Below, in pieces: positions 2,511-60,859 of a DNA stretch of 64,000 nt; the first letter of the stretch is position 1, and each line of letters opens with the position of its first letter. The translations under genes were made by a program, and so were the position numbers. The notes beneath the pieces are model-generated. The model had not been told where the DNA came from, made no database searches, and saw only the letters and a program-made list of their open reading frames with translations. Source of the DNA: Scenedesmus sp. PABB004 (Eukaryota); assembly GCA_014905635.1 (NCBI GenBank), contig JABVCE010000020.1:186001-250000 (forward strand), written 5' to 3'.

Positions 2511-4900
2511 ATGGCTTCACACAGCGATAGCGCTCCGGTTCGGGCAGCGCTCGCACTGGCGGCGGCGCTGGCGCTGCTCGCGGCCGCCCCGGCCGGCGGC
2601 GCAGCGGCGCGCCGCCCCGGGCGCGGCCTGCTGGCGGACGGGAGTGGCTACCGCAGCCTGCTGACAGCCACCACTGTGCCCGCGGCCGAGTGCCCGCCCG
2701 GCAGCGGCGTGTCAAATCGCGAAGGCGACTGCGCGCCGTGCAAGCGCAGCACCTGGTCGGCGGGCGGGCAGGGCGCCAAGTGCCAGCTCTGCCGAAAGGG
2801 CTACACCACGGCCAGCGACAGTGCAACATCGCCGGCGGCCTGCAGTGACTGCCGGGCCGGCTACGGGCGCGACCTCCACGCGCGGCCCAAACGCTGTGTT
2901 CTCTGCCCGGCCGGCACGTGGCGCGCGGCCAAGCCGGGGCAAGGCATCAGTTTCTGCCATGCCTGCCCCCTGCTGACAACAACGCCGGGCCCTGGTGCCA
3001 AGAGCGTCGCCGCGTGCAACGTGACCGTCGCCCTGCCCGACGACCCGCTGGCGTCGGCGCTGCTGCGCGGCCTGGCGGAGCTGGGCCCGGGACAGCTCGG
3101 CAACAATTGGCTGTCAACGTGGCGCCCCGGCACCGACCCCTGCACCTGGCAAGGCGTGGTATGCTCAGTGAGCACGCCGCGCGTGGTTAATTTGGTCAAC
3201 ATTGTCCTCACAGGACCGTGCACCGGCCGCCTGCCACGCGCGTGGGCCGAGCTCGGCGCCGGGCTGGAGGGGCTGTTCATCACTATCAACAGCCAAGGGG
3301 GTGAACAAAGCGGCCTCAGCGACGCGTCGTGGCCTGCGGAGTGGCGCAACCTCACCGGCCTCAAGCGCCTCCGGCTTGATGGCGTGGGCGTGACCGGCGC
3401 GCTGTCGCTCGCGGCGCTGCCGCCGACCATACAGAGCGTGGGGCTTTACAACAACCGCCTCACCTCCCTGGCCGACGACCTCGTGCCGGGCGCGCTGCCC
3501 GTGCTGGATGGGCTGATCATCCAGCAAGACCCTGCGCGCCCCATCGGCGGGACGCTCCCGGCGTCGTGGGGCACTCTCGCAAAGTTGGGGTCGCTGGACT
3601 TCCGCAACAAGGCGCTGATTGGCCCGCTGCCTGCCGCCTGGGGCGCCGGCATGGTGACACTTGGAGAGCTGTACTAGGGCGGCAACGCGCTGACCGGCCC
3701 CCTGCCTGCCGCCTGGGGCGACGGCATGGCGGCGCTCACACGGCTTGATCTGTCGCACAATGCCATCACGGGGCCCCTACCCGATGCGTGGGGCGGCCTG
3801 TCCAACCTTACATCGATGCAACTGTCGTACAACAACATCAGCGGCCCCATCCCTGAGGCCTGGGCCGGCGGCCTGGCGGCTCTGGGCACCCTGGACCTGT
3901 CGCACAACGCGCTCAACGGCTCACTGCCCGCCAGGGCGCTGAGCAACGTGCCGGTCCTGGACCTCAGTTACAACCAGGTGCGGCGCCTGGCAGGCCGGCG
4001 GCACAGCGCGCTGACACAGGCAGGCCCTGCGCGGGCTCACGGCAGGCGCGTACACGCACCGACCTGCGCTCTTCCCTGCCGCGGTGCCGCCGCCCCGCAG
4101 CTGACGGGGCGCGTAAACAACTGGGCGGGGTGGACAACGATCTCTAACTGCTCTGGACTCATGATTTACCCCATCCTGAACCTCGCGCACAATCAGCTCA
4201 CCGGCCCGCTGCCCGAGGCGCCGGGGGGCAAGGCTGGCCTCATCGACCTGTCGGACAACGCCCTCACCTCCACGCTGCCGGCCGCCTGGGCGCAGTGGGC
4301 CCGTGCCCCTGGTGAGCAACCCCCGCACTGGCTCAGCGCTGCGCGGCAGCTGCTGCATGCTGAGCGCGTGGCGCGCCACGCTCGCCCACCCAGTGCGGCC
4401 GCCGCTCCCTGCCTCCGCTGCGACCGCCGCCGCCGACAGGCTGCAGGCCGGACCTTGCACTTGAGCTCTCCAACAACCAGCTCCGCGGCCCGCTGCAGCC
4501 CGGGTGGGGCTCCTGGTCGGTGCCCTCGCAGGCGACGCTGAGCTGGCTCAACCTCACCGGCAACCCCCTCAACGCCACGCTGCCGCCCGAGTGGGGCAGC
4601 AGCGCAAGCCTGGGGTCGCTGGACGTGCGGCACTGCGGCCTGCAGGGCACGTTTCCAGCTGCAGCGTGGGCGGCGATGCGGCTCTACGAACTGGGCATCT
4701 GCGACAACCCAGACCTCTCCGGCTGCCTGCCGCACGCGTGGCTCCAGCGCGGCATGTCCCTGCTGGTGCACCCGCGCGCGTGCGAGCTGCCGGGCGACTG
4801 CGCCACGTGGGTGCCGATCAGCGAGCTAGCGAGAGGCGCAGCGCTGCACCCGGACCCGCTGCAAAACACTCGTATCACTGGCGTGTGCCCTGCGGCGTGA
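2511..4900 (+). pseudogene. LRR1: secreted Cys-rich-repeat (ephrin-receptor-like/GCC2-GCC3) + plant-type LRR protein, with an in-frame TAG
   Basis: Signal peptide, CxxC repeats, LRRNT (WRPGTDPCTWQGVVC) and LxxLxLxxNxLTGPLP repeats. Exons 2511-3977, 4101-4311, 4440-4900. TAG at 3675-3677 (ELY*GGNAL) replaces a framework Leu. Confidence 0.8.
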
Positions 4901-5448
4901 GCGCTGCTGCCACGGGGAGCGCTTGGGGGCGTTGAGAGCCAGCACTGTGGGGAGGGGCGCACCTGCGCGCACGCAGCATTGACGCAAGCGGCACTGCACT
5001 GCGTTGCTTGAAAAACACTAGCGGCGGGGCTCAGGCCACGCCAGCGGCGCGGCAGCACCGCAAACTGAGGGGTCAAGGCGGCGGCGTGGGAGTGGGACTG
5101 CTGATCTCACATGCGTGGCGGCACTGCGCTGGGCTGCGTGCGCATGAGCGGCGGTGGGCGTTTGCGGTCACGGACGGCTGGGTGCTAGTCGGCAGCGCGC
5201 GTGGTGCTTGGCAGGGCAGGCGTGAGCGCCCCGTGTGGCGCGTGCGTGGACTGCACTCGTGAGGGGCGCGTGGGCGCGGGGCAGGAGGCGGTTGCCTCGT
5301 GAGAGTTTCAATCAAGCGCTGGCCGCACAGCTCCTTTGCACATGGCGATCCTGGAAACCAAACCCTGTTCTCCCCTGGCGGCGGCGCGTCTCGCAGCGCC
5401 GGCCCCCGCCCGCCCGGCTGCAGCACCGCGCGCCTCGCCCGGCGCCCC

Positions 5449-7914: not shown

Positions 7915-7945
<31 letters not shown>

Positions 7946-10270: not shown

Positions 10271-10338
<68 letters not shown>

Positions 10339-10931: not shown

Positions 10932-10995
10932 GAGGGAGGGAGGCCCGCGGGGGCGCGGCGTGGGCTGGGCGCGCGTGGCGCGGCGCGGGCGAGCA

Positions 10996-11014: not shown

Positions 11015-11342
11015 GCGCCCGTGCCGCACGCAGGCGGTGCTGATGACACCGTTTGCAGCTCTCAGGTCGGCCCAGGCGCCCAGCCGCGCTGCCAGCCCCG
11101 GACGCGCCCGCCAGGCCCTGCTTCCGGGGCTTGCGCACTCCTCCCCGCGACCAGGCCGCACCGCCGCTCCGCCGCCGCGCCGTTCGCCCCGCCTCTATCG
11201 CACCGGCACCTCAGCGCTGGCCCAGCGGCGCGCTGCCGCGGCCCACCGTGCACTGCGAGACCAACCCGGGCAATCCGCTGTCGCAGCGCGCCCCGGGCGG
11301 CCGGCAGGCCCCGCCCGCACTCGCTCCGCCGCCAGGCCAGTC

Positions 11343-13505
11343 ATGCCAGCCCGCAGCGGCCACGCGCTGGCGCGGCACGCGCTCGCACTGGCGGCGGCGC
11401 TGGCGCTGCTGCTCGCGGCCGCCCCGGCCGGCGGCGCGGCGGCGCGCGGGCCGCGGCGCGGCCTGCTGGCGGACGGGGGTGGCTCCCGCAGCCTGCTGGC
11501 CACCACCACTGCGCCCGCGGTCAACTGTACACCCGGCAGCGGCGTGTCGGCGGGCGGCGGCGAGTGCGCGCCTTGCGAGCGCGGCAGGTGGTCGCGAGGC
11601 GGGGCGAACGCCGTGTGCCGGCTCTGCGGAAAGGGCTACAACACTGCCGGCCCAAATGCAACATCAGCAAGGGCCTGCAGCGACTGCCGGGCCGGCTACG
11701 GGCGCCCGCCTGCCGGAGGACGCCGCACCTGCGCGCTCTGCTCGACCGGCACGTGGCGCGCCGCCAAGCCGGGGGCCGGCATCAAGGTCTGCCAGGTTTG
11801 CCCCGTGCTGACGACGACGTCAGGCCCCGGCGCCAAGAGCGCGGCCGCGTGCAACGTGACCGCCGCCCTCGACGACCCGATCGCGTCGGCGCTGCTGCGC
11901 GGCGCGCTGGAGCTGGGCCCGCAGTTCAGTGACCGTTCGCTGGCGTCCTGGCGCCCCGGCACCGACCCCTGCACCTGGCAAGGCATAATGTGCACAGACA
12001 GCACGCCGCGCGTGGTCAGAGCGATCGGCCTTCAACTCGGACCGTGCACCGGCCGCCTTCCGCGCGCGTGGGCTGAGCTCGGCCCCGGGCTGGAGGAGCT
12101 GAGCATCACCATCAATGGCGGGGCCAGCCTCGCCGACCCGTCGTGGCCCGTGGAGTGGCGCAACCTCACCGGCGTCAAGCGCCTCTCCCTGAATGGCGTG
12201 GGCGTGACCGGCGCGCTGTCGCTGGGGGCGCTGCCGCCGAGTGTGGAGCGCGTGGACCTTCTGAACAACCGCTTCACCTCCCTGGCCGATGATCTGGCGC
12301 CGGGCGCGCTGCCCGCGCTGGCTCAACTGGCCATCGGTCAAGACCCCGACCACCGCATCAGGGGCACGCTGCCGGCCTCGTGGTCGACGCTCGCCGCGCT
12401 GCAGTCGCTGGACCTCCGCAGCCAGGCGCTGACCGGCCCGCTGCCTCCAGCATGGCCCGGCATGGCGGCGCTTCGAGAGCTGCGCCTGAGCGGCAACGCG
12501 CTCAGTGGGCCACTGCCCGCCAAGCTGCCCCCCAACGTTTTGCACCTGGACCTCAGCCACAACCAGGTGCGGCGCCTTACCCAGGCGACGGCGCGGCGCG
12601 GCGCGCGCTGCGCCGCGGACGGCCCGACGCGAGCTGCTCAAGCGGGCGCGCGTGCACAGCCCGACCTGCGGCCCGCCGCGCGCTGCCGCAGCTGACGGGC
12701 CGCCTGGATGCCTGGGAGTGGTGGAACGATACTTGTGACCCCGTCTCCACTGCTGGATCGTGTGAGGAAAAGCGCGCCTTGTTCCTCGCCCACAACCAGC
12801 TGACCGGCGCGCTGCCCGAGGGCCCTGCGGGCAGGGCCTACTTGGTTGATCTGTCGGACAACGCCCTCACCTCCACGCTGCCGGCGGCCTGGGCGCACTG
12901 GGCCAGCAATGATCCAGGTGGGCTGTCGGCGAGCGCTGCGCGCCGCGGCCGGTGACGGTGGTTGGGGCGCGCGTGGTACGCTGCTGGCCGGCAGGCCCAG
13001 CCGCTGGCCGCCCCAACTCAGACATCTGCCGCCAACAGGCTCTGGTAGTCAGGCCGTCATGCTCAACCTCGCCGGCAACCAGCTCCGCGGCCCGCTGCCG
13101 CCCGAGTGGGGCAACTGGACGTGGCCCGCAGAGCGAGATTGGCTGCACGGCCTCAACCTCACCGGCAACCCGCTCAACGCGACGCTGCCGCCCGAGTGGG
13201 GCAGCTTGAACCTGTGGGCGCTGGACGCGAGCTTCTGCAGCCTGCGCGGCGAGCTTCCAGCGGCGTGGGCACCAATAAGGCTCTCCGCACTGGCCATCAG
13301 CGACAACCCAGACCTCTCCGGCTGCCTGCCCCGCGCGTGGCTTCAGCTTGAGGGCTTTATGCAGCTGCTGGTGCACCCGCGCGCGTGCGAGCTGCCGGGC
13401 GACTGCGCCACGTGGGTGCCGATCAGCGAGCTGACGAGCGGCGCGGCGCCGGACCCGGACCCGCTGCGAAACACTCACATCACTGGCGTGTGCCCGCCGC
13501 CGTAG
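11343..13505 (+). CDS. LRR2: secreted Cys-rich-repeat + LRR protein, apparently intact, short LRR array
   Basis: MPARSGHALARHALALAAALALLL signal peptide. Exons 11343-12566, 12692-12917, 13039-13505, with the same two intron positions as its paralogs. No TM helix seen. Confidence 0.85.
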
Positions 13506-13599
13506 CGCCGCTGCACAGTGCGAGGGGCGTGCATTTGTGTGTCTGCACCACACGAAGCGCATGCCGTGCTGAGCCGGCACACACGCATCGGGCACAAGC

Positions 13600-14430
13600 T
13601 GTTTGCGCCTGCCAGCAGGGCTGCGCTTGGGGGAGCTCATGGCGCAAGGCGCGGCTGCAAGGCTTGGGGGGCCGCCCGAACTGAACAGGCAGCGGGCGCT
13701 GCTCGCGGGCGGTCGGTGTGGTGTGGGCGCGGACGCGGCTGCGGGAAGCGCTGGTCGTTCAATGACAGGTGGGAAGCACTGCCGGCGGCATGCCGGCTCT
13801 GCATGGCTGCTGGGCGGCCAAACCAAGGCGGGGGCGGCTGGCCAAGGCTGCAGCGCTGGTGGGTGGTGGCGGCTGTGCGGTGGTGCAGGGGCCGCGGCAC
13901 GGCGCTGCCGTGCTGCTGGGCCATCACATGCACTGGCCTTGGGCGGGGCGGGCTGGACACGGCGTCTGCTGTGCGCTGAAGCACCTGGTGGGGAGTCCAC
14001 CGCGCTGCGGGCGCGGCGCTGGCTGCGCGCGTGCGCTGCTGGGCCGGCGCGGGCATTCATGACTTCAAGCGCGTGGGTGATGCGGGACTGAGCTCTGGTT
14101 TGCACTGGTCTGTGCTGCGGCGCGCTGCAGCGCGGCATTGTCGTCAACGCATCGACGCGGAAACAGAGGTGCCTGCAGGCACCAACGCATGCGCGCGCCG
14201 GCCGCGCGTGGGTCCGACAACAATCAGCAAGCTCTTGCGCGCGCTGCCTCGTGGCTGCGTTGGCTGCGAGATCTTGAGGGACACGTGCACAACCGCACCG
14301 TCGGTGTCCTGGCGGGTGCCGCGCACCCGCGGCCGCTGCCCCCGCTGCGCGTGCGCACCATGGGCGCCCCCCGCGCACGCCGCCGTGCATCGGCGTGTGC
14401 CCCGTTCCGAGCCCTCTGCTCGGATTCAGG
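13600..14430 (+). repeat. Degenerate intergenic repeat family flanking LRR/sulfatase genes (copy between LRR2 and LRR3)
   Basis: Shared motifs GCTGGTCGTTCAATG..AGGTGGGAAGCACTGCCGGCGG, GGCTGGCCAAGGCTGC and TTCAAGCGCGTGGGTGATGCGGGACTGAGCTCTGG recur near 17.9-18.25, 36.4-37.4 and 61.6-62.0 kb. Confidence 0.8.
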
Positions 14431-14862
14431 CCGTCACCTAGTAACGCCGGCCCAGCACGGACCCGCCGCGCCGCCACATCCCTGCCGCGCGCCGAGCGGG
14501 CGAGCGCGAGCAGCGGCGGCGCGGTGACGCCGCGCCCGTGCCGCACGCAGGCCGTGCGTTCACCGCCGTTCCGCTGTGCTGGGTCGTCCCAGGCGCCCAG
14601 CCGCGCTGCCAGCCCCGGACGCGCCCGCCAGGCCCCGCTTCCGGGGCGCTGCTGCTCGGGCTTGCGAGCTCCTCCCCGCTCGACCAGGCCGCGCCGCCGC
14701 TCCGCCGCCGCGCACTTCGCCCCGCCTCCATCGCACCGTCACCTGTGCACTGGCCCAGCGGCGCGCTGTCGCTGCCCACCGTGCACTGCGAGACCAACCC
14801 GGCCAAGGCAGCGCGCCCCGGGCGGTCGGCAGGCCTCGCCCGCACGCGCCTGCCAGCCAGTC

Positions 14863-17408
14863 ATGCCCAGCCGCAGCGGCCACGCGCTGGCGCGGCACGC
14901 GCTCGCACTGGCGGCGGCGGCGCTGGCGCTGCTGCTCGCGTCCGCCCCGGCCGGCGCCGCGGCGGCGCGCGGGCCCAGGCGCGGCCTGCTGCTCGCGGAC
15001 GGGAGCGGTCCCGCAGCCTGCTGGACACCGCGGCCGCGCCCAGCAAGGTGTGCAAGCCCGGTACCGGCGTGACACTGGGCGCAGGCAAGCGCGGCACTTG
15101 GTGCCGGCCGTGCAAGGCCGGCACCTGGTCTGCCGGCGGCCTCAACGCCAAGTGCAAGGCCTGTCGGCAGGGGTACAAGACCGTCGGAGGCGGCGCATCG
15201 AGCTGCAGCGACTGCCGGGGCGGCTATGGCCTGCCATTGAGCGCCGGCAACGCAACGAACGTCTGCGAACCCTGCCCGGCCGGCACGTGGCGCGACGCCA
15301 AGCCGGGGGAGGGCATCCAGCCCTGCAACGCCTGCCCTCCGCTGACGACGACAGCAGGCCCCGGCGCCAAGAGCGTCGCCGCCTGCAACCAGAGCCTCGC
15401 CCTCCCCGACGACCCGCTGGCGTCGGCGCTGCTGCGCGGCGCGGCGGAGCTGGGCCCGCAGTTGAGTGACAGTTCGCTGGCGTCTTAGCGGTCAGACACC
15501 AACCCCTGCACCTGGCGGGGCGTGATCTGCTCGGACAGCACGCCGCGCATGGTCACAGCGCTCGACATTTACTTGGGGCAGCAGCCGACCGGCCGCCTGC
15601 CGCGCGCGTGGGCCGAGCTCGGCCCCGGGCTGGAGTCGTTGTACATCACCATCAACAGCCAAGGCAGTGAACAAAGTGGCCTCAGCGACGCGTCGTGGCC
15701 CGTGGAGTGGCGCAACCTCACCGGCCTCAAGCGCCTCCGGCTTGATGGCGTGGGCGTGACCGGCGCGCTGTCGCTCGCGGCGCTGCCGCCGAGCGTGCAG
15801 AGCGTGACTCTTTACAACAACCGCCTCACCTCCCTGGCCGACGACCTCATGGGGGGAGCGCTGCCCGCTCTGGATGAGCTGATCATCCAGCAAGACCCTG
15901 CTTCTTACCCCATCGGCGGGACGCTGCCGGCGTCGTGGGGTGCGCTCGCAAAGTTGTGGTCGCTTGACCTCCGCAGGCAGGCGCTGACCGGCCCCCTGCC
16001 CGAGGCGTGGTCCGGCATGGTGGCGCTCCAAGATCTGCGCCTGAGCGGCAACGCGCTCAGCGGACCCCTGCCTGCCTCCTGGGGCGGCGGCATGGCGGCG
16101 CTCACCAGTCTGAACTTGAGCGGCAACGCGCTCAGCGGTCCCCTGCCTGCCGCCTGGGGCGACGGCATGGCGGCGCTCACCAGTCTGAACTTGAGCGGCA
16201 ACGCCCTCGGCGGCCCCCTGCCTGCCTCCTGGGGCGCCGGCATGGCGGCGCTCATGTTGCTGGACCTGTCGCACAATGCCATCACGGGGCGCCTTCCTGA
16301 TGCGTGGCGCATGGCCAAGCTCTCATGGCTGGACCTGTCGCGCAACAGCATCAGCGGCCCCATCCCCGAGGCCGTTACCGGCGGCCTGGTGGCACTGGGC
16401 ACCCTGGACCTGTCACACAACGCGCTCAGCGGGTCACTGCCCGCCAGGGCTTTCAGCAACGTTGGGGCCCTGGACCTCAGTTACAACCAGGCGCGGCGCC
16501 TGGCTGGGCGGCGGCGCGGCGGCGCGCTGACATAGGCAGGCCGTGCACGGGCTGCGCTGGCAGCTCACGGCAGGCTGAGCACTCACCTGCGGCGTGCCGC
16601 GGTGCTGCCGCTCCTTTGCAGCTGACGGGGCGCATCAAAGACTGGGCGAGATGGACGACGCTTGCCAGCTGCTTCACGGTCAATTTTGCCCACAACCAGC
16701 TGACCGGCCCGCTGCCCGAGGTGCGGTGGGACGGCCCTGGCGGCATCGACCTGTCGGACAACGCCCTCACCTCCACGCTGCCGGCCGCCTGGGTGCAAAG
16801 GGCGTGGACTGAAGGAGGTGGGCTGTCGCACTCGCTGCGCTGGGAACGCTGCTGGCGGTGCCTGAGCGCGGCACATGCTGGCCCAGGCCCAGCTGCCATG
16901 GTCACATGGCGCCCGACTCACATCTGCTGCCGCAGATTGCGGCTGGCGCGTGGACCTCAACCTCGCCGGCAACCAGCTCCGCGGCCCCCTGCCGCCCGAG
17001 TGGGGTGCCTGGACCCTAGACCCTTACGCTGGCCTTGGGGCTGTGTCTGTGGCGCTGGCCTCGCTCAACCTCACCGGCAACCCGCTCAACGCCACGCTGC
17101 CGCCCGAGTGGGGCAACATCACGAGCCTGGGGTCGCTGGACGTGCGGTCCTGCGGCCTGAGCGGCATTTTTCCCGCCGCAGAGTGGGCGCCGATGCGGCC
17201 CGACCGACTTGGCATCAGCGACAACCCAGACCTCTCCGGCTGCCTGCCCCGCGCGTGGCTCAAGCCAAAGGGCTACTCATCGCTTCTGTACTATCAGCCC
17301 AACTGCGCCTGCTCCATGCCGGTGGCGCTGAGCGAGCTGGCGAGCGGCAAGGCGCTGGACCCAGACCCGCTGCGCAACACGCAAATCGTCGGCATTTGCC
17401 CGGCGTGA
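14863..17408 (+). pseudogene. LRR3: Cys-rich-repeat + LRR paralog with a frameshift and a nonsense codon
   Basis: 1-nt deletion near 15009 (GGGAGCGGTCCCGCAGC versus paralog GGGGGTGGCTCCCGCAGC). TAG at 15486-15488 replaces the conserved LRRNT Trp. The first intron has a GC donor at 16491. Confidence 0.85.
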
Positions 17409-17689
17409 GCGCCGCCGCGGCTGCTCAGTGCGAGGGGCACGTGCGCGCTCGCACACCCGGCACGCTTATATGTCGACGGGCGGTGCGCGCGCGGCAGGCG
17501 CTGGGACCTCCCGGTTGCGCTGCGTGGGCGGCAGGCGGCCAGTGGCGCGTGCCGGGCGGTCAGAAGCTGCTAGCGTGAGTCGCCCGCTGGTCGCGCGCGT
17601 CAAAGCTTGGGACTTGCGCGCACAGCGCACGGGGCCGCCTCACTGCGCTTGGGGCTTGGGGCAGGGTTTGTGGCCGAGTGTGGCAGCAT

Positions 17690-18350
17690 GCCTGCGCTTG
17701 TGGGGGAAGCTCAAGACGTGCTGCTGCGCGTGCTTGTGAGCGCACGGCGTCGGGATGCGTGGGGCGCGGCCGCCAGGTGTGGCGCTGGCCGCCGCACTGA
17801 ACAAAAAGCATGCGCTGCTGTGGCGTGGGTCGGTGTGGGCGCCGCCGGCTGCGGGAGGCGCTGGTCGTTCAATGGCAGTGGGGAAGCGCTGCGGGCGGCA
17901 CGACGGCTCAGCGCGGGTGGGCGGCTCGTTGGGCAAGCTCGCCCGAACCAAGGTGGGGGCGGCTGGCCAAGGCTGCGGCGCATGCACAACGCTGGTGGGT
18001 GGCGGCGGCGGTACGGTGGGTGCACGGAACGCGGTGTGGCGTCGCCGTGCTGCATGTGCGGGGGGGGGGGGGGGCTTTAAGTGCTGTTGGCCGAGGGGGC
18101 TGGGCGGCGCATCTGATGTGCGCCCAAGCAGCTGCTGGGGAGTCCACCGCTGCCCGGGGCGGCGCTGGCTGCGCGCGTGCGCTGCCAGCGCTGCTGGCGC
18201 CGGGCGCTCAAGCGCGTGGGTGGTGCGGGACTGAGCTCTGGTTTGCACTGGAGACCACTGCGCGCGCCGTCAAGCCCAGCTCGCACAGGTGGCGTCGCAA
18301 CGTAGAGGCACACCCGACTCGCGCCGGGGCACGCGCGCTGGTCGAAATCC
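17690..18350 (+). repeat. Degenerate intergenic repeat family (copy downstream of LRR3)
   Basis: Colinear with 13620-14220; e.g. CAAGCGCGTGGGTG.TGCGGGACTGAGCTCTGGTTTGCACTGG near 18210-18250. Confidence 0.8.
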
Positions 18351-18364
18351 GCCGACCCTTGGCC

Positions 18365-27197: not shown

Positions 27198-30100
27198 CCG
27201 CAGGGGGCTGGGCTGGCGGGCGGGTCAGCAGCGCGCGGGCTGCTGCGGGGCGGGTGGCGGTGGCGAGCGGCCGCGCGGCGCGGGGGCGCGCGGCCGCGGC
27301 CGCGAGCGCCGTGAGTGCGGAGGGACCCTGAACTGCGCCCTGCCGGTGCGAACATGGCCGGTCGCCGCGCCGCCCGCTCGCGAGGGCGGCGGCCGCTGAA
27401 GCGCGGCGCGCCGCGGTCGGCAGAGCAACGGGCAGGCCGGGCCTCGCCACACCACTGGCTCGCTGAGGCACCGCCGCGCCGCTGGCAGGCCGTCGGAATA
27501 GCTAGGCCGTCGGATAGCGCTCTGCGAGGGGCCCGAGACGCGCCGCCCCTGATGGCCGGCGCACCGGCCGCGATGCTCGTGGCGATGGCCCTGCTGGCGC
27601 TGGTGGTCGGGTCGGGAGCCGCAGGTGCGTCGCGGCCCGCGAGACGCTCGGCATCGACGCCCATGCCGCTGCGCACGCGCCGCGCCCCTGCGCCTGAGCA
27701 CAAGCCGACACGACTGCTCGGCCACAGGCACGCTGCAGGACGCGCTCTCGACCGCGGCCAGCGGCAGCCCCGTTGCGAGCGCCGCCGCCGCCGCTGCTGC
27801 TGCTGCTCCCGGTGACGCCGGCGACTGCCAGCCCGGGGAGGTCGACCAGCCCATGCAGCTGCTGCATGGTGAGGGGGCGGTCGAGCCAGAGGCGCACGGG
27901 CGGCGAGCGCGACGTCACCGGCTGGCAGCGGCGCGCAGCGCGGTGGCCGTTGAGCTGGTTGTGCCAGCGCTGATCGGCCGCGCGGCTAGGGCTCACACCG
28001 CGCCGCCACCGCAGGGATGTCCTCTGAGCCGTCGCCTGCCAAGGTGCCCATCCCGCCCCTGCCCCAGGGCGAGCGGCCCAACATCCTGCTGATCGTTACA
28101 GATGACCAGGTGCGGGGTCTGGCGCGCGGCGAGCGCAGCGGCGCGGCGCCCTGGCCCACCGCCCACCGGCGCAATCCGCTGCGCGCGCCCCTGTGGCCAG
28201 GGCTACGATGACATTGGGATGCACAACCCGGCCTGGGTGAACACGCCGCACCTCGACGCATTCATGCGTGCCGGCACGCGCTTTGACAACTTTTACACCG
28301 CGCCCCAGGTCGGCACAGGCGGCGGCTAACCGCCCGTGCGGCGCAGGCTGCGCGTCGCAGGCAGCCCGGGCATGGCGGCAGGCGCACGCGCGCCGTCCAA
28401 CCCACCCGACCGCTGCCGCCGCCCGCCTCTGCGCCGCCTGGCCGCCCGCCCGCGTGCCGAGTGCAGTGCGCGCAGACACGTGCCGAGCTGCTCACGGGGC
28501 GCAACCACGCACGCACTGGCGTGCTGCTGGTGCATGCGGGTGCGCGGCGGGCGGCCGCACTGCGACTGTGGATCCGGCAGCGCCTGCGGTCTCGGGCGCT
28601 GCGCGGCGGCGCCTCGCGGGCCTGGGGGCTGTCGGCCGCCCCGCGCCGGGACGCACGGCACGACTCTGCCCTGCCCCTTCCACCCCCTCACCCTTTGCCA
28701 GGCTACGACTTTGTGAGCCGCGACGAGGTCACTGGCGCGGAGCTCCTGCGGCGCGCCGGCTACAAGACCGCGCACTTTGGCAAGTTTCACAACCAACAGA
28801 TTGATGGTTACATGCCGTGGCAGATAGGGTATGACAGCGTTTGGGTGCCCGGTCTCACTGCTGCCAACGCCAGCTTCCTGACCCACAATGGCAGGGTTGA
28901 GCAGGCGGCTCGCGGCATGCCAGACGACGTGATGGCAGACAAGCTGGTCAGCTACATCGCCGACGCTGCTGCCAACACCACGGCGCAGCCGTTCTTTGCG
29001 ACGTTTGCGACCCACGGCATGCATTTGAGCCGCTACCCTGGGTTTGGTCGTCGAGCGTTCAGGTTCTTTCCGGAGCGATACAACACCAAGTATCACAGCA
29101 GGCAGGCCGCACGCGTGCCCGCAGCGTGCGCCAGGCGCTGGCGCCGCCTGCCGCCCGGCGCCGCTGCCTGCCCCACGCTGGCCGCGACCGCCCCGCTCAC
29201 ACCGCGTCGTCGCCTGTGCCCGCGCGCCTCTGCCCGCGCGCAGCGCCAAGTACCGCTCCTTTGCAAAGGACACCCGCGACGTGCGCCTGCGCGGCTGGCA
29301 TGGGGACCAGGGCTCTCAGCTCTGGGCGCCCGGCCGCGCGCTCTGGCCTGCCCTCGCACGCGCGCAGCGCTGACCCGCGCCCTCCGGCTGCCTCGCCGGC
29401 GCCAGGTGTTTGCCATGGCCAACTACCTGGACAGCGTGCTCGGCAAGGTGCTGCGCGCGTTGGACGACACAGGCTTGGCCAAGGTGCGCGCTGCCGCCGC
29501 TGTGCTGCTGCTGCTGCAGCCTGCAGCTGAGCCAGGTCTGCGGCGCGGCAGTGCGTGTGGCGCCCACGGCGGGTCTCACGTGCGCCCGCCCGCGCAGCGC
29601 ACGCTGGTGCTAGTGCTGGGAGACAACGGCAGCTCCCTGACAGATTCACAGCGAAACAACGCCAGAGAGCGCGCGGTGAGCGCGGGAGGGCCGCTGCTGG
29701 CGCCGCACAAGGCAGGCCTTTGCTGCGTGCCTGGCGCCTCACGCCCGCCACCGCCGCCGCCGCGGCTGCAGGCCCGCATGCCGTCGAAGATGGTGGGCGA
29801 GAAGGACTGGGTGTGGGAGGGCGGCGTGCGCGGCTGGCTGGCCGCGCGCGGGCCCGGCGTGCCGGTCGGCGCGGTGGACAGCACGCTGCTGTACACGCCC
29901 GACATTGTGCCCACGCTGCTGGACCTCGCGCGCGCACGCTCGCCTGCCGGCGGCCCAAACCTGCCGGCGTTTGACGGCAAAAGCTTTGCGGCCCACCTGA
30001 GGCCAGCGTCGGCCGTGCAGCACGCCGCGCCGCCCGCGGGCCGGTTTGACGCCCGCACGCTGTTCTTCCTGTCACCTCACTGCTGGGACGCAGATGCGGT

Positions 30101-36153: not shown

Positions 36154-36154
36154 A
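32408..36154 (+). pseudogene. Sulfatase copy 2 with a +1 frameshift before the catalytic domain (pseudogene or assembly error)
   Basis: AAGGTGGCCCATC at ~32875-32887 versus AAGGTGCCCATC in copy 1. The shifted frame stops at about 32938. The remaining exons are open. Confidence 0.75.
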
Positions 36155-36284
36155 CCTGCTAGCGGGCGAAAGTGCAGTGCCAAGCTGACCCCGCGCGACG
36201 AGCAAGTTGGCTGCACACAAGGCCGCAAGTTGGTCCGCCTTACCAACAGTTTGTAGGGCGGGGGAAAGGTTTTTTTGCATGCCA

Positions 36285-37420
36285 GCATGACTGCGCTGGG
36301 GGGAGCTCGTGGCATGGGGCGCGGCCGCCAGGCTTGGCGCGCCGCGGGGCTGAGCAGGCAGCGTGCGCTGCTGGCGGGGGTCGGTGAGTGATGTGGGCGC
36401 GGCCAGCTGCGGAAGGCGCTGGCTCTTCAACGACAGGTGGGAAGCACTGCCGGCGGCTGCGCATGGCCGGCCCTGCAGCACTGGGCGGCTCGCCTGAGCG
36501 TGGAGGGGCGGCTGACCAAGGCAGCGCACGGCTGCGACGCTTGCACGTGCTGTTGGTGGGCGCCGTGGTGGGGAACGCTGCGTGGTGCCGCCGTGCTAAA
36601 AGTGCGGTGGCGGGCACAGGATGCACTGGCCTTTGGGATGGGGCTGGTTTGGGTGCGTTGGCTGCTGCGCACGCAACTGCTGGGGGCGTCCAACGCTCTG
36701 GGGCGCCGCTGGCTGCGCGCGTGCGCTGCCGGCGTGGGCATTCACTGACCCATGCACATGGCGGTGCATTCACAGACTCGGCGACTCAGTTGGTGCCGCA
36801 AAGGTTGGTGCGGGCGCGCCTGCTGGCTGGGCGCCTCAAAGCACGCCGCACCGGCGGCATGCGCGCAATTGCGCTGCTTGGGCGGGCTAATGAATGAATG
36901 AACGCTGATTGAGTGTGCGGAGGCCGCGAGCTTGTACACAACCAGGTGTGTCTCACAACTGCCCACATTTGCGTCCGGCGTGGGCACTTTGCTGGGGCGG
37001 GTGGCAGGGAGGGGGGGCTGCTCAGCTCGCGCAGCTGCTGTGGATAGATCTCAACGCAGGCGGCGCCACTTGCTGCGCGCGTGCGCGGCCGGCGCGGACA
37101 TTCTCCAGTTTCATTCAAGAGCGGCGTGGGTGATGCATGATTGCGCTTTGGCTTGCGCTGGTCTGCGCGACGCGCTGCCGTTGGACACAGGCGAGGCATC
37201 ACTGCTCCGACGGTCGTGAAGGCTGGCCAAGGCTGCGGCGCATGCACAGCGCTGGTGGGTGGCGGCGGTGCGGTGGTGGGGCAACGCCATGCTGCGCGTG
37301 CTGAGGCGCCAGGCACACTGATCTTGGGCGGGGACGGGCTGGGCGTGGTGGCTGCTGTGCGCTGCTGCCGAGTCCGTGGCGCTCAGGGGGGCGGCGCTGG
37401 CTGCGCGCGTGTGCAGCCGG
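36285..37420 (+). repeat. Degenerate intergenic repeat family (copies downstream of sulfatase 2)
   Basis: GGGGGAGCTCGTGGC, ACAGGTGGGAAGCACTGCCGGCGG (~36433), GGCTGGCCAAGGCTGCGGCGCATGCAC (37221) and GGCGCTGGCTGCGCGCGTG, all as found after LRR2 and LRR3. Confidence 0.78.
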
Positions 37421-46182: not shown

Positions 46183-48577
46183 TCACGCAGGGCAGATGCC
46201 GGTGAGTTGCGTGTTGCGCAGCGGGTCCGGGCCTACCTGGCCGCTCGCCAGCTTTTTTAGCGACACCAGCATGGAGCAGGTGCAGTTGGGCTGATAGTAC
46301 ATCAGCGATGTGTAGCCCGTGGCCAGCCACGTGCGCGGCAGGCAGCCGGAGAGGTCTGGGTTGTCGCTGACGCCCAGTTGGTAGAGCCGCATCGGCGCCC
46401 ACTCCGCCGCTGGAAACGTCCCCTGCAGGCCGCAGGACCGCACGTCCAGCGACCCCAGGCTTGTGCTGTTCCCCCACTCGGGCGGCAGCGTGGCGTTGAG
46501 CGGGTTGCCGGTGAGGTTGAGCCAGCTCAGCGTCGCCTGCGAGGGCACCGACCAGGCGCCCCACTCGGGCGGCAGCGGGCCGCGGAGCTGGTTGTTGGAG
46601 AGCTCAAGTGCAAGGTCCGGCCTGCAGCCTGTCGGCGGTGGCGGTCGCAGCGGGGGCAGGGAGCGGCGGCCGCGCTGGGTGGGCGAGCGTGGCGCAAGCC
46701 ATGCGCTCAACATGCAGCAGCTGCCGCGCAGTGTTGTGCTGTGCCAGTGCGGGGGTTGCTCACCAGGGGCACGGGCCCACTGCGCCCAGGCGGCCGGCAG
46801 CGTGGAGGTGAGGGCGTTGTCGGACAGGACGATGCGGCCAGCCCTGCCCCCTGGCGCCTCGGGCAGCGGGCCGGTGAGCTGATTGTGCGCGAGGTTGAGG
46901 GTGGGATAGTCGGTGAAGGATCCAGAGCAGTTCACAATCGTCGCCCATCCCGCCCAGTCGGCCACGCGGCCCGTCAGCTGCGCGGAGCGTCGGCAGCGCA
47001 GCAGGGGCGCGGGTTGGGTTGGGTCCACGCGCAAGCAAAGGTGCCGCGGCCAGCGTGCGCGGGGCCTGTCTGCAGCAGTGCGCCGCTGCGCCGCGCCGCC
47101 GCCCAGCCAGGCGCCGCACCTGGTTGTAACTGAGGTCAAGGTCCGGCACGTTAACAAATGCCGCGGCAGGCAGTGACCCGCTGAGCGCGTTGTGTGACAG
47201 GTCCAGTTTCACCAGCGTCGCCAGGCCGCCGGCCCAGGCCTCAGGGATGGGGCCGGTCAGGTTGTTGTACGACAGTTGCATTGATGTGAGCTTGTCCAAG
47301 GCGCCCCACGCATCGGGAAGGGGCCCCCTGAGCGCGTTGTGTGACAGGCGCAGCTGTGTGAGCGCCGCCATGCCGCCGCCCCAGGAGGCAGGCAGGGGAC
47401 CGGTCAGCGCGTTGCCGCCCAAGTCGAGAGTGGTGAGCGCCGCCATGCCGGACCACGCCTCCGGGAGCGGGCCGGCCAGGGCCAGGTTGGTGAGGTCCAG
47501 CGACTGCAGCGTTGCAAGCGTGCCCCACGACGCCGGCAGCGTCCCGCCGATGGGGTAAGAAGCAGGGTCTTGCCGGACGGTCAGCTCAACCAGCGCGGGC
47601 AGCGCGCCCGGCGTCACGTCATTGCCCAGGGAGGTGAGGCGGTTGCCGTAAAGCGTCACGCTCTCCACGCTCGGCGGCAGCGCCGCCAGCGGCAGCGGTC
47701 CGGTCATGCCAACCCTGTCGATGGAGACGTACTTGAGGCCGGTGAGGTTGCGCCACTCCAGGGGCCACGACGCGTCGCTGAGGTTGGCCCCGCCGTTGAT
47801 GGTGATGCCCAGATACTCCAGCCCGGGGCCGAGCTCGCCCCACGCGCGCGGAAGGCGGCCGGTGCACAGTCCGAGCTGAAGGTCGACCTGTCTGACCACG
47901 CGCGGCGTGCTGCCTGTGCAGCCCACGCCTTGCCAGGTGCACGGGTCGGCGTCGGGGCGCCACGATGACAGGAAGTTGTTGCCGACCGCTCCTGGGCCGA
48001 GCTCCATCACGCCGCGCAGCAGCGCCGACGCCACCGGGTCGTCGGGGAGGGCGAGGCTCTGGTTGCACGCGGCCGCGCTCGTGGTGCCGGGGCCTGACGT
48101 CGTCGTCAGCACGGGGCAGGCGTGGCACGGCTGGATGCCCGCGCCCGGCTTGGCGGCGCGCCACGTGCCGGCCGGGCAGAGCGCACAGCGCTTGCCGGGC
48201 GCGTGCAGGTCGCGGCCGTAGCCGGCCCGGCAGTCGCCGCAGGCGCGCGCCGACATCGCGCCCTCAGTGGCGGTGGTGTAGCCTTTGGGGCAGCCCCGGC
48301 AGAGCGCGCCTGACCCGCCGGCCGACCAGGTGCCGCGCTTGCATTTTGCGCAGGCCCCGGCGCCCGCCGACACGCCGCTGCCGGGCGGGCAGCTGACGGT
48401 GGGCGCAGCGGCCGGCGCGGCCAGCAGGCCGCGGGAGCCACCCAAATCCGCCAGCAGGCCGCGCCGGGGCCCGCGCGCCGCCGCGCCGGCCGGGGCGGCG
48501 GCGAGCAGCAGCGCCAGCGCCGCCGCCGCCAGTGCGAGCGCGTGCCGCGCCAGCGCGTGGCCGCTGCAGCTGGGCTT
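46183..48577 (-). pseudogene. LRR4: Cys-rich-repeat + LRR paralog, frame open but start codon mutated (ATG>AAG)
   Basis: The minus strand reads TAA GTC AAG CCC AGC TGC AGC GGC CAC where paralogs read GTC ATG CCC AGC CGC AGC GGC CAC. It has the same two introns and ends TGICPA*. Confidence 0.72.
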
Positions 48578-57840: not shown

Positions 57841-58592
57841 GCTGAGGACGTCTGGCGGGCCGAGCTGTCACAGCTGTGACGGAGCTCGGCGGCAGTGTGG
57901 GCGCGGGGCGGGCAGCGCGGCGTCCCGCACAGCACGAGGCCGGGCCGCTGCGGCCGAGTTCTGGAGGAGGGATTGCAGCAGGCGGCTGGCCGGCGCGAGA
58001 ATGGCCGTGCGGCTTCTGGGAGGAGGGGCAGACAAGAACTGGCGCGGGATGCTCTTAGATTGCGCTGCTGCTCTGCGAGTGAAACGCACTGCTCCTTTGC
58101 CCACCGCGGGGACGCGTTGCCCCGGTCCGCGTGCGCTCCTGGACTCAGGCTGGATTCAGGCCGTCACCAGGCAACGCCGCCCCCCACACGGACCCGCTGC
58201 GCCGCCACGCCTGGCGCGCTCCGAGCGGGCGGGGGCCGAGCAGCGGCGGCGCGGTGACGCCGGCGCCCGTGCTGCACGCAGGCCGTGCGTTCGCCGCCGT
58301 TCCGCGGTTCTGGGTCGTTCCAGGCGCCCAGCCGCGCTGCCAGCCCCGGACGCGGCCCGCCAGGCCCTGCTTCCGGGCTTGCGAGCTCCTCCCCGCTCGA
58401 CCAGGCCGCACCGCCGCTCCGCCGCCGCGCCGTTCACCCCGCCTCCATCGCATCGTTACCTGAACACAGGCCCAGCGGCGCGCTGCCACGGCCCACCGTG
58501 CTCTGCGAGACCAACCCGGGCAATCCGCTGTCGCAGCGCGCCCTGGGCGGTCGGCAGGCCCCGCCCGCACGCGCTCCGCCTCCCGGCCCGTC

Positions 58593-60859
58593 ATGCCCAG
58601 CCGCGGCGGCCACGCGCTGGCGCGGCACGCCCTCGCACTGGCGGCGGCGGCGCTGGCGCTGCTGCTCGCGTCCGCCCCGGCCGGCGGCGTGGCGCGCGGG
58701 CCCAGGCGCGGCCTGCTGGCGGACGGGAGTAACTCCCGCAGCCTGCTGGTCGCCAACGCTGCGCCCGCCGTTGATTGCCCGGCCGGCAGCGGCGTGCCGG
58801 CGGGCGGCGGCGGCGACTGCGCGCCGTGCAAGCGCGGCACCTGGTCGGCCGGCGGGCCAGACGCGCGGTGCCGGGGCTGTCCCGAGGGCTACAACACGCC
58901 CGGCGAGGGCGAAACGTCGGCGGCGGCCTGCACCGACTGCCGGGCCGGCTACGGCAAACCGGCCGACAGCCGTGTGCGCACGTGCGAGCCCTGCCCGCCA
59001 GGCGCGTGGCGCAACTCGAAGCCAGGCGGCGGCATCAAGCCCTGCCATGCCTGTCCTGTGCTGACGACGACACCAGGCCCCGGCGCCAAGAGCCCGGCCG
59101 CGTGCAACGTGACCCTTGCCCTCCCCGACGACCCGGTGGCGTCGGCGCTGCTGCGCGGCCTGCTGGAGCTGGAGCTGGGCGCAGAGCTCATTGGTCGTCG
59201 CGGCCTGGGGTCGTGGAACCCCGGCACCAAACCCTGCACCTGGTCGGGCGTGGTCTGCTCACGAGGCGCGCCGCGCGTGGTCACATGGGTCAGTGCTTAC
59301 TTCAGGCGGCCGCCGACGGGCCGCCTGCCGCGCGCGTGGGGGGAGCTCGGCCCCGGGCTGGAGTCGCTGTACCTCAGCACGGACCCCGGAGTGAGCGGCG
59401 GGGCAAACCTCAGCGACGCGTCGTGGCCGACAGAGTGGCGCAGCCTCACCGGCCTCAAAAACCTCGCACTCAGAGGCATGGGCGTGACCGGCCCGCTGTC
59501 GCTGGCAGCGCTGCTGCCGCCAAACTTGGAGCGCGTGGACATTGGCGGCAGCCGCTTCACCTCCCTGGCCGACGACGTCACGCCGGGCGCGCTGCCTGCG
59601 CTGACTCAGCTGAACTTCCAGCAGGACGACGACCACCCTATCGGCGGGACGCTGCCGGCGTCGTGGGGCGCGCTCCCCGCGCTGCAGACGCTGGCCCTGA
59701 CGAATCTGGGTCTCACCGGCCCGCTGCCGGAGGCCGGCTTTCACAACCTCACGAACCTGATCCTGCCGCACAACGCGCTGTCAGGGCCGCTGCCGGGGGC
59801 CGGCTTTCCCAGCCTCAAGAACCTGGCCCTGCCGTTCAACGCGCTCTCAGGGCCGCTGCCGGCCAAGCTGCCGGCCAACTTGGTGTTCCTGGACCTCAGC
59901 CACAACCAGGTGCGGCGCACGGCACAGGGCCACGGCCGCTGCGCAGCGCACGCTGCGCCAGGGCGCAGACATGCCCCGCGCCGGCTGCGCTGGCAGCGGC
60001 AGGGGGCGCGCGGACACACGCACCGACTTGCGGTGCCGCCCAACCCCCGCGCAGCTGACGGGGCGCCTGGATGGCTGGGAGCTGTGGGCGCGTGGGCGCA
60101 GCCCGAGCGGTGACTGTGTCGACGACCTCAACCTTTCCCACAACCAGCTCACGGGCCCGCTGCCCGAGGCGCCGGGGGCCTGGCATGGCATGTTTCTGTC
60201 GGACAACGCCCTCACCTCCACGCTGCCGGCCGCCTGGGCGAAGTGGACGTTTCCTGAAGGTGGGCCAGGGCCGTTGCGTGCGATGCGCTGCAGCCGAGCG
60301 GCGAGAGGCTGGGCACGCCCAGCGTGCTGCTGGCCTGGCAGGCCCGGCCGCAGCCCGCGGCCGCACATGCTCATGCCCACCTCAACCCCGGCCGCCACCA
60401 GGCTGCGGCGGCGGAAGCGTGTACCCTGACCTCTCCAACAACCAGCTCCGCGGCCCCCTGCCGCCCGAGTGGGGCGCCTGGTCAGAGCCCATGCAGGCGA
60501 CGCTGGGCTGGCTCAACCTCACCGGCAACCCGCTCAACACCATGCTGCCACCCGAGTGGGGCAACATCACAAACCTGGGGTCGCTGGACGTGCGGTCCTG
60601 CGGCCTGCAGGGGACGTTTCCAGCTGCAGCGTGGGCGCCGCTGCGGCTCTATGCACTGGGCATCAGCGACAACCCAGGCCTCTCCGGCTGCCTGCCACGC
60701 GCGTGGCTTGAGCACGGGACGGAGCTGGTGAGGCCCACGTGCGAGGTGCCTGGAGGCTGCTGGGGCCCAGGGGTGCCCCTGACCGACCTGGTGAGCGGCG
60801 CGCCGCTCGACCAGGACCCGCTGCGCAACACCGACATCACCGGCCTGTGCGCGCCGTAG
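58593..60859 (+). CDS. LRR5: secreted Cys-rich-repeat + LRR protein, apparently intact
   Basis: Exons 58593-59909, 60055-60259, 60402-60859. Signal peptide, CxxC repeats, LRRNT, LRRs and a DNPGLSGCLP cap. Confidence 0.87.

Follow-up and report, generated by a model that had tools for sequence, protein, structure and literature searches.

Mosaic LRR paralogs in a green alga and a probable history of interlocus gene conversion

Introduction

Do the LRR paralogs clustered in this stretch of a very GC-rich green algal genome follow one tree, or is each a mosaic of the others built by exchange between copies? A sequence-only reading had proposed the latter from peptide motifs shared by different pairs of copies at different points along the gene, and all 13 of its peptide matches were located in the copies it named. 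LRR1 shares YGRDLHA (2862-2882, + strand; 48200-48220, - strand) and CRPDLALELSNNQ (4442; 46588) with LRR4, ITINSQG (3279; 15645) and LKRLRLDGVGVTG (3360; 15726) with LRR3, and LLVHPRACELPGDCATWVPISEL (4760; 13365) with LRR2. LRR4 shares ITINGGA with LRR2 (12105 in LRR2; 47786 in LRR4), and QDPASYPIGG (15891 in LRR3; 47543 in LRR4) and YYQPNC (17289; 46282) with LRR3, while LRR2 and LRR5 have LDLSHNQ (12546; 59889) and LTGRLD (12692; 60055) in common.

Results

Self-BLASTN of the 64-kb window (the whole stretch of DNA analysed) identified six paralogous loci with pairwise identities of 73-87%; the five named earlier are real, and a sixth, LRR6, had been missed. LRR6 (62747..64000, +) is truncated by the window end, up to which its reading frame stays open from the ATG at 62747 (418 codons), and each of the five complete paralogs has three exons. 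Two complete copies are intact: LRR2 (11343..13505, +; exons 11343-12566, 12692-12917 and 13039-13505; 638 aa), a short form with about four LRR units fewer, and LRR5 (58593..60859, +; exons 58593-59909, 60055-60259 and 60402-60859; 659 aa). The other three carry disabling lesions that were absent from the earlier reading. LRR1 (2511..4900, +; exons 2511-3977, 4101-4311 and 4440-4900; 712 codons; GT..AG introns) has an in-frame TAG at 3675-3677 (+). The pseudogene LRR3 (14863..17408, +; exons 14863-16490, 16622-16817 and 16936-17408) has, on the same strand, a 1-bp deletion before 15009, a TAG at 15486-15488 that replaces the LRRNT Trp, and a GC donor at 16491-16492 where GT is expected. LRR4, the inverted copy (46183..48577, -; exons 48577-47120, 46977-46764 and 46628-46183; 705 codons), reads AAG where the other copies keep ATG, with a TAA just before it (48583-48581) and the first in-frame ATG at codon 109. 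The cluster thus appears to be partly decaying, with three of five complete copies disabled.

Four copies are direct and form two adjacent pairs, and the spacer 5' of LRR3 (from 13909) matches the spacer 5' of LRR6 (from 61788) at 81.6%, from which it follows that a gene pair was once duplicated segmentally. Flanks, intron lengths and repeat number are particular to each copy: the 5' flank of LRR1 is non-homologous to those of the other copies (upstream identity 43-68%), and LRR3 contains a tandem array of a 75-bp LRR unit (16013-16254, +; 3.2 copies, 91% matches). The same window holds two sulfatase copies that are 100% identical over long stretches.

The encoded protein is predicted to be secreted and ectodomain-only: a predicted signal peptide is followed by Cys-rich repeats of the Ephrin_rec_like type, then by LRRNT_2 and a run of about 12-17 plant-type LRRs, and the C-terminal cap contains Cys. 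Pfam matches to Ephrin_rec_like (PF07699, a GCC2/GCC3-type Cys-rich repeat) reach 36.3 and 38.8 bits against a cut-off of 23.1 and, lying above the gathering score, place it in that family. For LRRNT_2 the matches reach 26.5 and 29.8 bits (cut-off 20.7), for LRR_8 in LRR2 32.7 bits (cut-off 27) and for LRR_4 in LRR5 27.1 bits (cut-off 27), LRR2 exceeding the cut-offs for Ephrin_rec_like, LRRNT_2 and LRR_8 alike, and the motif L..L.L..N.L finds 17 LRR units in LRR4; the LRRNT_2 cap together with Pfam-matching LRR units would place the protein among plant-type extracellular LRR proteins. The sole hydrophobic 19-residue window (Kyte-Doolittle at least 1.6) is N-terminal, at residues 7-34 (LRR4 lacks the ATG), and in such windows no hydrophobic segment that could serve as a transmembrane or C-terminal anchor was found past the N-terminus. 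C-termini of the type ...ITGVCPAA have no hydrophobic tail, and the stop codons align across all five complete copies, with similarity vanishing downstream. The Pfam search gave no Pkinase match in the exon 1 or exon 3 translations. An FLS2-like LRR receptor kinase was rejected because both transmembrane helix and kinase domain are missing, and an LRR receptor-like protein (RLP) of the Cf-9 type because there is no C-terminal membrane anchor. The gene appears to be lineage-restricted. Its N-terminal part had a single match among 1.84 billion library representatives. This match, P0001 of Scenedesmus sp. PABB004, is also the closest protein in the database and is annotated FLS2, a label that is annotation transfer and no sign of FLS2 membership. 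A search of metagenome contigs found no relatives.

When the MAFFT genomic alignment is scanned in 150-column sliding windows, the nearest neighbour switches along the gene, as had been claimed. The closest pair is LRR2-LRR6 and likewise LRR3-LRR5 at column 600 (96%), LRR5-LRR6 at column 825 (91%), LRR2-LRR4 at columns 1275-1350 (87-88%), LRR1-LRR3 at columns 1425-1575 (93-94%) and LRR1-LRR4 at columns 2550-2925 (93-97%), before columns 3075-3225 pair LRR1 with LRR2 (84-88%) and LRR3 with LRR4 (85-87%). Each of the 10 possible two-copy splits is backed by 21-59 sites, clustered by position.

The strongest shared tract joins LRR1 4146-4695 (+) to LRR4 46932-46373 (-), with 95.3% identity inside and 76.5% outside and dS of 0.10 and 0.33, respectively. 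It spans exon 2, intron 2 and the 5' half of exon 3; intron 2 has 121 matches over 128/135 nt between these copies and 60-74% identity in the other nine pairs. Intron 1 has no pair-specific similarity (66-77% across all 10 pairs). Toward the 5' end, LRR1 3279-3605 (+) corresponds to LRR3 15645-15974 (+) at 91.4% inside and 74.5% outside (dS 0.16 versus 0.34), and LRR2 11994-12126 (+) to LRR4 47917-47785 (-) at 90.2% and 75.4% (p = 0.002; dS 0.09 versus 0.33). In the C-terminal cap, the 'LLVHPRACELPGDC' type is the tract shared by LRR1 4762-4910 (+) and LRR2 13367-13514 (+), at 91.4% inside and 75.6% outside (dS 0.12 versus 0.31), and the 'YYQPNC.CSM' type that shared by LRR4 46532-46169 (-) and LRR3 17053-17421 (+), at 86.3% by BLASTN (dS 0.19 inside, 0.31 outside). 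LRR4 46606-46382 (-) is further paired with LRR5 60427-60651 (+) at 93.6% inside and 73.8% outside (dS 0.13 versus 0.32). At the signal-peptide end, LRR5 58587-58728 (+) matches LRR3 14857-15004 (+) at 96.2% inside and 71.5% outside, and LRR2 11337-11490 matches LRR6 at 96.1%, with dS of 0.05 and 0.04.

Over the 11 tracts tested, dS is 0.04-0.19 inside and 0.31-0.39 outside. Low dS and the presence of an intron within the tracts point to common ancestry rather than constraint, and the spread of dS to events of different age. None of the tracts is near-identical, even the strongest; exact runs shared by two copies do not exceed 127 bp and mostly span 32-89 bp, so that none of the exchange events detected appears to be recent. 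The tracts give no direction of transfer from donor to recipient. Because a breakpoint can be placed only between two informative sites, it always seems to fall inside a conserved stretch, and the earlier idea that constant framework blocks served as crossover points is unsupported.

That no single tree explains the locus, as the sequence-only reading held, was borne out by every test, namely counterparts of PHI, GENECONV and 3SEQ that we scripted in place of the published programs, together with AU tests and simulations. On 327 informative sites the PHI-type statistic gave z = -13.5, -14.7 and -10.7 at neighbourhoods of 10, 20 and 40 sites, with none of 2000 permutations as low as observed. 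In the pairwise best-fragment test, seven of 10 pairs reached the permutation floor (p = 1/2001) and the other three gave p = 0.0015, 0.002 and 0.011, although conservation of the signal-peptide region inflates some of these results. Half of the 30 triplets (15) had p <= 0.0015 in the maximum-descent test, under the Bonferroni limit of 0.05/30. AU tests on eight equal blocks left no topology that fits throughout: for each of the 15 five-taxon topologies one block or more gave a rejection at p < 0.05, with 25|1|34, 12|3|45 and 12|4|35 escaping individual rejection under a strict Bonferroni correction for eight blocks. The accepted trees all pair LRR1 with LRR3 in segment S5 and LRR3 with LRR4 in segment S9, both segments having been picked post hoc from the data; the equal blocks and the simulations are the unbiased version. 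Holding the whole alignment to one topology, even the best, costs 38.7 lnL units relative to the block-wise best trees. Alignment is unreliable in the LRR region of variable repeat number (columns ~1790-2170), of which the tests use the few gap-free columns. The locus carries the recombination signal of type I gene-conversion clusters, and, judged by neutral sites (dS, intron 2), its shared tracts are younger than the sequence around them.

Discussion

The LRR paralogs are mosaics of one another, and the best reading, to which we give a probability of about 85%, is old and repeated interlocus gene conversion among the six. Under this reading the copies would first have diverged to ~75% nucleotide identity, after which stretches of ~130-550 bp would repeatedly have been copied between them by interlocus (ectopic) conversion, with partners including copies ~42 kb apart in opposite orientation; each copy would end as a patchwork whose closest relative varies along its length. 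The earlier claim of ectopic exchange between dispersed and even inverted copies is supported by the recombination tests, dS and intron 2, with LRR4 included. Its description of the exchange as recurrent holds in the sense of several events differing in age but does not extend to ongoing exchange, given the length of the longest exact run.

What such exchange may have been for is more doubtful. The sequence-only reading saw combinatorial binding surfaces, and the tracts do differ in exposed, hypervariable residues, but three of the five complete copies are disabled. A maintained generator of diversity, in which LRR blocks are shuffled into new binding surfaces and disabled copies possibly act as donor cassettes, is an unlikely possibility. 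At predicted exposed xxLxLxx positions 55% of pairwise comparisons show a difference, versus 26% at other LRR positions, about twice as often, and disabled and intact copies share tracts (LRR3-LRR5, LRR4-LRR5, LRR1-LRR2 and LRR2-LRR4). dN/dS is 0.81-1.72 at exposed codons and 0.47-0.72 elsewhere, nominally above 1 at exposed codons in nine of the 10 pairs, though these pairs are non-independent and a GC3 of 0.85-0.89 probably lowers dS and so makes absolute dS and dN/dS values unreliable. The same set of features is read as adaptive in plant R-gene clusters (PMC3113787). Against this, the youngest tracts have a dS of ~0.04 with no identical tract among them, and the disabled copies also fit plain decay.

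A reciprocal origin, by unequal crossing-over or through chimeric genes born at duplication, is improbable for the mosaic as a whole. It would suit the paired arrangement of the four direct copies, the segmental duplication of a pair, the variable repeat number and the tandem array of LRR3. The LRR3-like stretch of LRR1, however, sits between LRR4-like stretches and needs double crossovers, a crossover with the inverted LRR4 would invert the interval and copy nothing, and at the signal-peptide end LRR2 goes with LRR6 and LRR3 with LRR5, opposite to the flank relationship left by the pair duplication. Internal tracts with other relationships on both sides, together with one inverted partner, thus favour non-reciprocal conversion over crossing-over as the probable mechanism, while certain tract boundaries could reflect crossing-over or chimeric duplication instead.

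A chimeric consensus from collapsed or mis-joined reads of similar paralogs is very unlikely. The copies are locally alike enough to mislead an assembler, the identity of the sulfatase pair would do the same, and the 1-bp deletion in LRR3 resembles a typical long-read assembly error; but a chimeric join predicts tracts identical to their source, which neither the 95.3% of the strongest tract nor the 127-bp run satisfies, tract dS varies in the way that events differing in age would produce, and flanks, intron lengths and repeat number are distinct for every copy. Least credible of all is the absence of exchange, with uneven constraint or convergent selection on one underlying tree giving local similarity: conserved framework blocks are present and five copies agree at 91-97% over the signal-peptide region, yet pair-specific identity runs through intron 2, synonymous divergence is 2- to 8-fold lower inside tracts, simulating the single ML tree with gamma rate variation gave a cost of 0.0-9.1 lnL units over 40 alignments where 38.7 was observed, and autocorrelated rates should not lower PHI.

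Interlocus conversion has well-known settings, and this locus resembles a further example of the type I R-gene cluster pattern, to which the tomato Cf-4/9 Hcr9 cluster, another R-gene/RLP cluster, also belongs; exchange here would come on top of rapid amino-acid change at the xxLxLxx positions predicted to face the ligand. The coffee SH3-CNL cluster is a type I example with frequent sequence exchange among paralogs (PMC3113787, which cites Kuang et al. for type I genes). The likenesses comprise clustered LRR paralogs chimeric of one another, gene conversion between paralogs including inverted ones, pseudogenes and copy-number change in a birth-and-death pattern, and hypervariable exposed xxLxLxx residues with Ka/Ks >1, a value that is nominal in the algal cluster. 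The differences are that the host is a unicellular chlorophyte rather than a land plant, that the algal protein begins with Ephrin_rec_like Cys-rich repeats and has no NB-ARC, membrane anchor or kinase, and that the algal cluster has no known pathogen link.

Polygalacturonase-inhibiting proteins (PGIP) are secreted, ectodomain-only plant LRR proteins that share the signal peptide (predicted in the algal protein), LRRNT_2, ~24-residue plant-type LRRs, Cys-containing C-terminal cap and lack of a membrane anchor, and likewise occur as small families in clusters; the algal protein adds the N-terminal Ephrin_rec_like module and has ~12-17 LRR units rather than 10, and its gene has two introns within the LRR region. 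FLS2 shares LRRNT_2 and plant-type LRRs, but the algal protein lacks its transmembrane segment and kinase domain and has the Ephrin_rec_like module. The LRR family of Ectocarpus, also algal, shows high birth-and-death rates, diversifying selection on LRRs and shuffling that blurs paralogy; there, however, one repeat is one exon, whole exons are shuffled and the proteins are cytoplasmic GTPases, whereas here tracts cross exon borders, one of them taking in intron 2, and secretion of the proteins is predicted. Green algae possess LRR ectodomain-only proteins and LRR-RLPs (PMC10834447).

A bolder reading, somewhat less likely still than a maintained generator of diversity, is that this unicellular chlorophyte has an R-gene-like recognition repertoire of clustered, secreted LRR proteins, with diversifying selection on ligand-facing residues and new variants arising by conversion from the disabled LRR1, LRR3 and LRR4 into the intact, putatively expressed LRR2 and LRR5. 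If true, the repertoire would give pseudogene-templated diversification a counterpart among algae.

Results

Gene copies and their predicted products

Self-BLASTN of the window recovered six paralogous loci of 2.2–2.6 kb each, with LRR1 (2511–4900), LRR2 (11343–13505), LRR3 (14863–17408), LRR5 (58593–60859) and LRR6 (from 62747, truncated where the window stops) on the forward strand and LRR4 (48577–46183) on the reverse strand. Five of these copies had been described in a sequence-only reading, with LRR6 as an additional copy that was missed. Nucleotide identity between copies ranges from 73–87% in pairwise comparisons. All five complete copies have a common three-exon model, with a phase-0 intron of 123–145 nt and a phase-1 intron of 118–142 nt, and introns in the window are of the GT..AG type. 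With 70–83% G+C in 2-kb bins, 255 stop-free frames of at least 150 codons over the six frames of the window, and no Pfam match above cut-off for 22 long inter-LRR ORFs, ORF length is no guide to genes, and most long ORFs are spurious at this G+C. The 22 ORFs gave just two matches, both sub-threshold, to Pkinase (24.4 bits, cut-off 31.7) and Flavodoxin_1 (23 bits, cut-off 25).

Exon-1 translations of LRR2 and LRR5 matched Ephrin_rec_like (36–39 bits, cut-off 23.1) and LRRNT_2 (26.5–29.8 bits, cut-off 20.7), in addition to LRR_8 in LRR2 (32.7 bits, cut-off 27) and LRR_4 in LRR5 (27.1 bits, cut-off 27). The products span 638–712 codons with 21–23 cysteines and 6–9 N-glycosylation sequons. As the sole hydrophobic 19-residue stretch is N-terminal and both a kinase domain and a membrane anchor are absent from the LRR products, these are predicted to be secreted, ectodomain-only LRR proteins.

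Mosaic relationships along the gene

When the genomic sequences were aligned with MAFFT (3507 columns), identity in 150-column windows revealed that the nearest neighbor of the copies switches along the gene. LRR2 pairs with LRR6 and LRR3 with LRR5 at the signal-peptide end (96% identity), followed by LRR5-LRR6 at column 825 (91%), LRR2-LRR4 at columns 1275–1350 (87–88%), LRR1-LRR3 at columns 1425–1575 (93–94%) and LRR1-LRR4 at columns 2550–2925 (93–97%), while at the 3' end LRR1 pairs with LRR2 (84–88%) and LRR3 with LRR4 (85–87%). Every peptide match listed in the sequence-only reading was found at the copies named. Among the five complete copies, 916 of 2045 gap-free columns are variable, and all 10 possible two-copy groupings are supported by 21–59 sites each, with these sites clustered by position.

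Three tests of a single tree were performed as analogues of the PHI, GENECONV and 3SEQ programs. The PHI-type statistic (327 informative sites) fell 10.7–14.7 SD below the permutation mean, with none of 2000 permutations as low. The best-fragment test reached the permutation floor for seven of the ten pairs (p = 0.0015, 0.002 and 0.011 for the remainder), and 15 of 30 triplets passed Bonferroni correction in the maximum-descent test. Initial AU tests used three segments chosen after inspection and are therefore post hoc and illustrative only; one accepted solely trees pairing LRR1 with LRR3, a second accepted three LRR1+LRR4 trees plus two others, and the third accepted solely trees pairing LRR3 with LRR4, such that the accepted sets were disjoint and no topology occurred in more than one. 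Because of this post hoc choice, the AU tests were repeated on eight equal blocks, where none of the 15 topologies was accepted throughout (rejection at p < 0.05 in one block or more), with three topologies escaping individual rejection at the strict Bonferroni limit for eight blocks. The comparison of summed likelihoods carries more weight: the best single topology was 38.7 lnL units worse than the block-wise trees, whereas 40 alignments generated under the single ML tree (HKY+G4, alpha 0.6) gave costs of 0.0–9.1. The earlier claim that no single tree fits the copies is upheld by these results. It had also placed the crossover points in the constant framework blocks; a breakpoint can be placed only between informative sites, which makes a test of that preference circular, and a single haplotype is represented.

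Several further features accompany the copies. Approximately 250 bp 5' of the ATG in LRR2, LRR3, LRR5 and LRR6 (about 11092–11340, 14609–14860, 58340–58590 and 62492–62745) is more strongly conserved than the coding region, with 95–100% identity at columns 300–400, where LRR4 has 74–77%; LRR1 is without a homologous flank. This stretch could be a constrained 5'UTR/promoter or could have been homogenized by conversion. A 75-bp tandem array in LRR3 (16013–16254; 3.2 copies, 91% matches) encodes three almost identical 25-residue LRR units, and about four LRR units of LRR1, LRR3 and LRR4 are missing from LRR2 and LRR5, so the number of LRR units also changes via intragenic duplication or deletion. 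A repeat of 110–190 bp (78–83% identity) lies directly downstream of LRR2 (13607–13793), LRR3 (17757–17899) and LRR4 (46112–46002) and after the second copy of a sulfatase unit (36277–36460), and may represent either a 3' flank that these genes have in common or a dispersed element of small size.

Age and mechanism of the tracts

The strongest tract of unusual similarity joins LRR1 4146–4695 and LRR4 46932–46373, with 95.3% identity inside and 76.5% outside, and passes through intron 2, where these copies have 121 matches of 128/135 nt compared to 60–74% for the other nine pairs. Synonymous divergence is 0.04–0.19 inside the 11 tracts tested and 0.31–0.39 outside, and the tract similarity reflects shared ancestry, not constraint. 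Values of about 0.04–0.05 for LRR2-LRR6 and LRR3-LRR5, 0.10 for LRR1-LRR4, 0.16 for LRR1-LRR3 and 0.19–0.21 for LRR3-LRR4 indicate several events spread over time.

Short internal tracts have other relationships on both sides and the inverted partner copy is about 42 kb away, which together point to non-reciprocal interlocus gene conversion between copies rather than single crossovers. Segmental duplication occurred as well: the spacers preceding LRR3 and LRR6 match each other (81.6%, self-BLASTN). Despite this match, at the adjacent signal-peptide ends LRR3 groups with LRR5 and LRR2 groups with LRR6, which again requires exchange after duplication. Chimeric assembly is an unlikely source of the mosaics, as every tract differs from its partner and the longest stretch that any two copies share exactly measures 127 bp.

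The window also contains three copies of a unit of ~4 kb for a sulfatase-domain protein (27199–31400 and 32051–36240, forward strand; 45540–41390, reverse strand), including an ORF (28287–30881) that matched sulfatase PF00884 (E = 1.4e-14). The two tandem copies (A and B) are 100% identical over long stretches and just 83–93% identical at columns 1600–2200. Near column 3400 the inverted third copy shares 99% identity with A; near column 4000, where A and B are just 80% identical, it shares 95% with B. This patchy identity suggests recent exchange or duplication.

Disabled copies and exposed residues

Three of the five complete copies (LRR1, LRR3 and LRR4) are disabled by lesions that the sequence-only reading missed. 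LRR1 has an in-frame TAG (3675–3677). In LRR3, one base pair is missing before 15009, a TAG (15486–15488) takes the place of the LRRNT tryptophan codon and a splice donor reads GC (16491–16492). In LRR4 the conserved ATG position reads AAG with a TAA before it, and the first in-frame ATG is codon 109, past the signal peptide. Only LRR2 and LRR5 are intact, and LRR6 is open up to the window end. The use of TAG as a sense codon was ruled out, since TAG is the terminating codon of LRR2 and LRR5, where the stops of the copies align. The 1-bp deletion in LRR3 could be an assembly error, which is less likely for the three base substitutions.

The xxLxLxx positions predicted to be exposed to solvent (85 columns in 17 LRR units) differ in 55% of pairwise comparisons versus 26% at other LRR positions. 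The dN/dS of exposed codons was 0.81–1.72, exceeding 1 in nine of ten pairs, compared to 0.47–0.72 elsewhere; these values are descriptive, as the pairs are non-independent, and a GC3 of 0.85–0.89 probably depresses dS.

Relatives of the family

The nearest protein among 5.8 billion clusters was P0001, a database entry named 'FLS2 [Scenedesmus sp. PABB004]' (55% identity over 90% of the query), with the second-best match at E = 3e-15. This search, which covered proteins of near-equal length, returned 18 proteins, of which P0001 was the sole family member. In a search of every one of 1.84 billion representatives, P0001 alone covered the N-terminal part among the matches listed. Almost all of the remaining 149 proteins in the list are long (all but two >1,100 aa), match mostly via many short stretches in the LRR part and are presumed, as a group, to be generic LRR proteins; three of the 149 (P0023, P0028 and P0117) have a longer single match extending into the pre-LRR part. 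The genome of Scenedesmus sp. PABB004 is given as 78.5% G+C in PMC12571836, consistent with the composition of the window. Combined with the sole N-terminal match to a protein of the same alga, the family looks lineage-restricted. In metagenome contigs, a protein-alignment scan returned 598 stretches that matched low-complexity signal-peptide patterns, none confirmed as relatives, and an invariant 29-base block had no match.

The name FLS2 is an annotation transfer. P0001 aligns as a member of the kinase-less family of the window, and its gene model seems to omit the portion equivalent to exon 2 of these genes, so P0001 is probably both mis-annotated and mis-named.

Discussion

For the resistance genes of land plants, it is textbook knowledge that clustered LRR paralogs exchange sequence. 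Rather than a novel type of system, the cluster described here is a sound and statistically robust case of this known process, in a lineage and with a domain architecture that are new for it. PMC3113787 describes exposed-residue hypervariability and raised dN/dS for plant R-gene clusters, and the type I clusters, the class with frequent sequence exchange, are alike in their chimeric paralogs, conversion that includes inverted copies, and hypervariable exposed residues. Brown-algal ROCO genes undergo a similar shuffling of LRR exons (PMC3341825), whereas tracts in the window disregard exon borders. Ectodomain-only LRR proteins have been recorded in green algae (PMC10834447), and our literature search found no report of exchange among clustered LRR paralogs in a chlorophyte microalga.

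The mosaics had been proposed to produce combinatorial binding surfaces. Taken with the disabled copies and the lack of recent tracts, the dN/dS pattern fits two readings: a cluster that generates diversity, or one in partial decay where changes at unconstrained positions are simply tolerated.

For annotation and phylogeny the locus calls for caution: gene trees of the LRR family are meaningless unless partitioned, ignoring the lesions would result in half of the copies being mis-called as intact, and the nearest database relative carries the wrong label FLS2. If the exposed hypervariability reflects selection, the locus would point to rapid evolution of extracellular recognition in a unicellular green alga, and would offer a compact, testable example. 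The targets of this recognition could then be pathogens, grazers, symbionts or mates.
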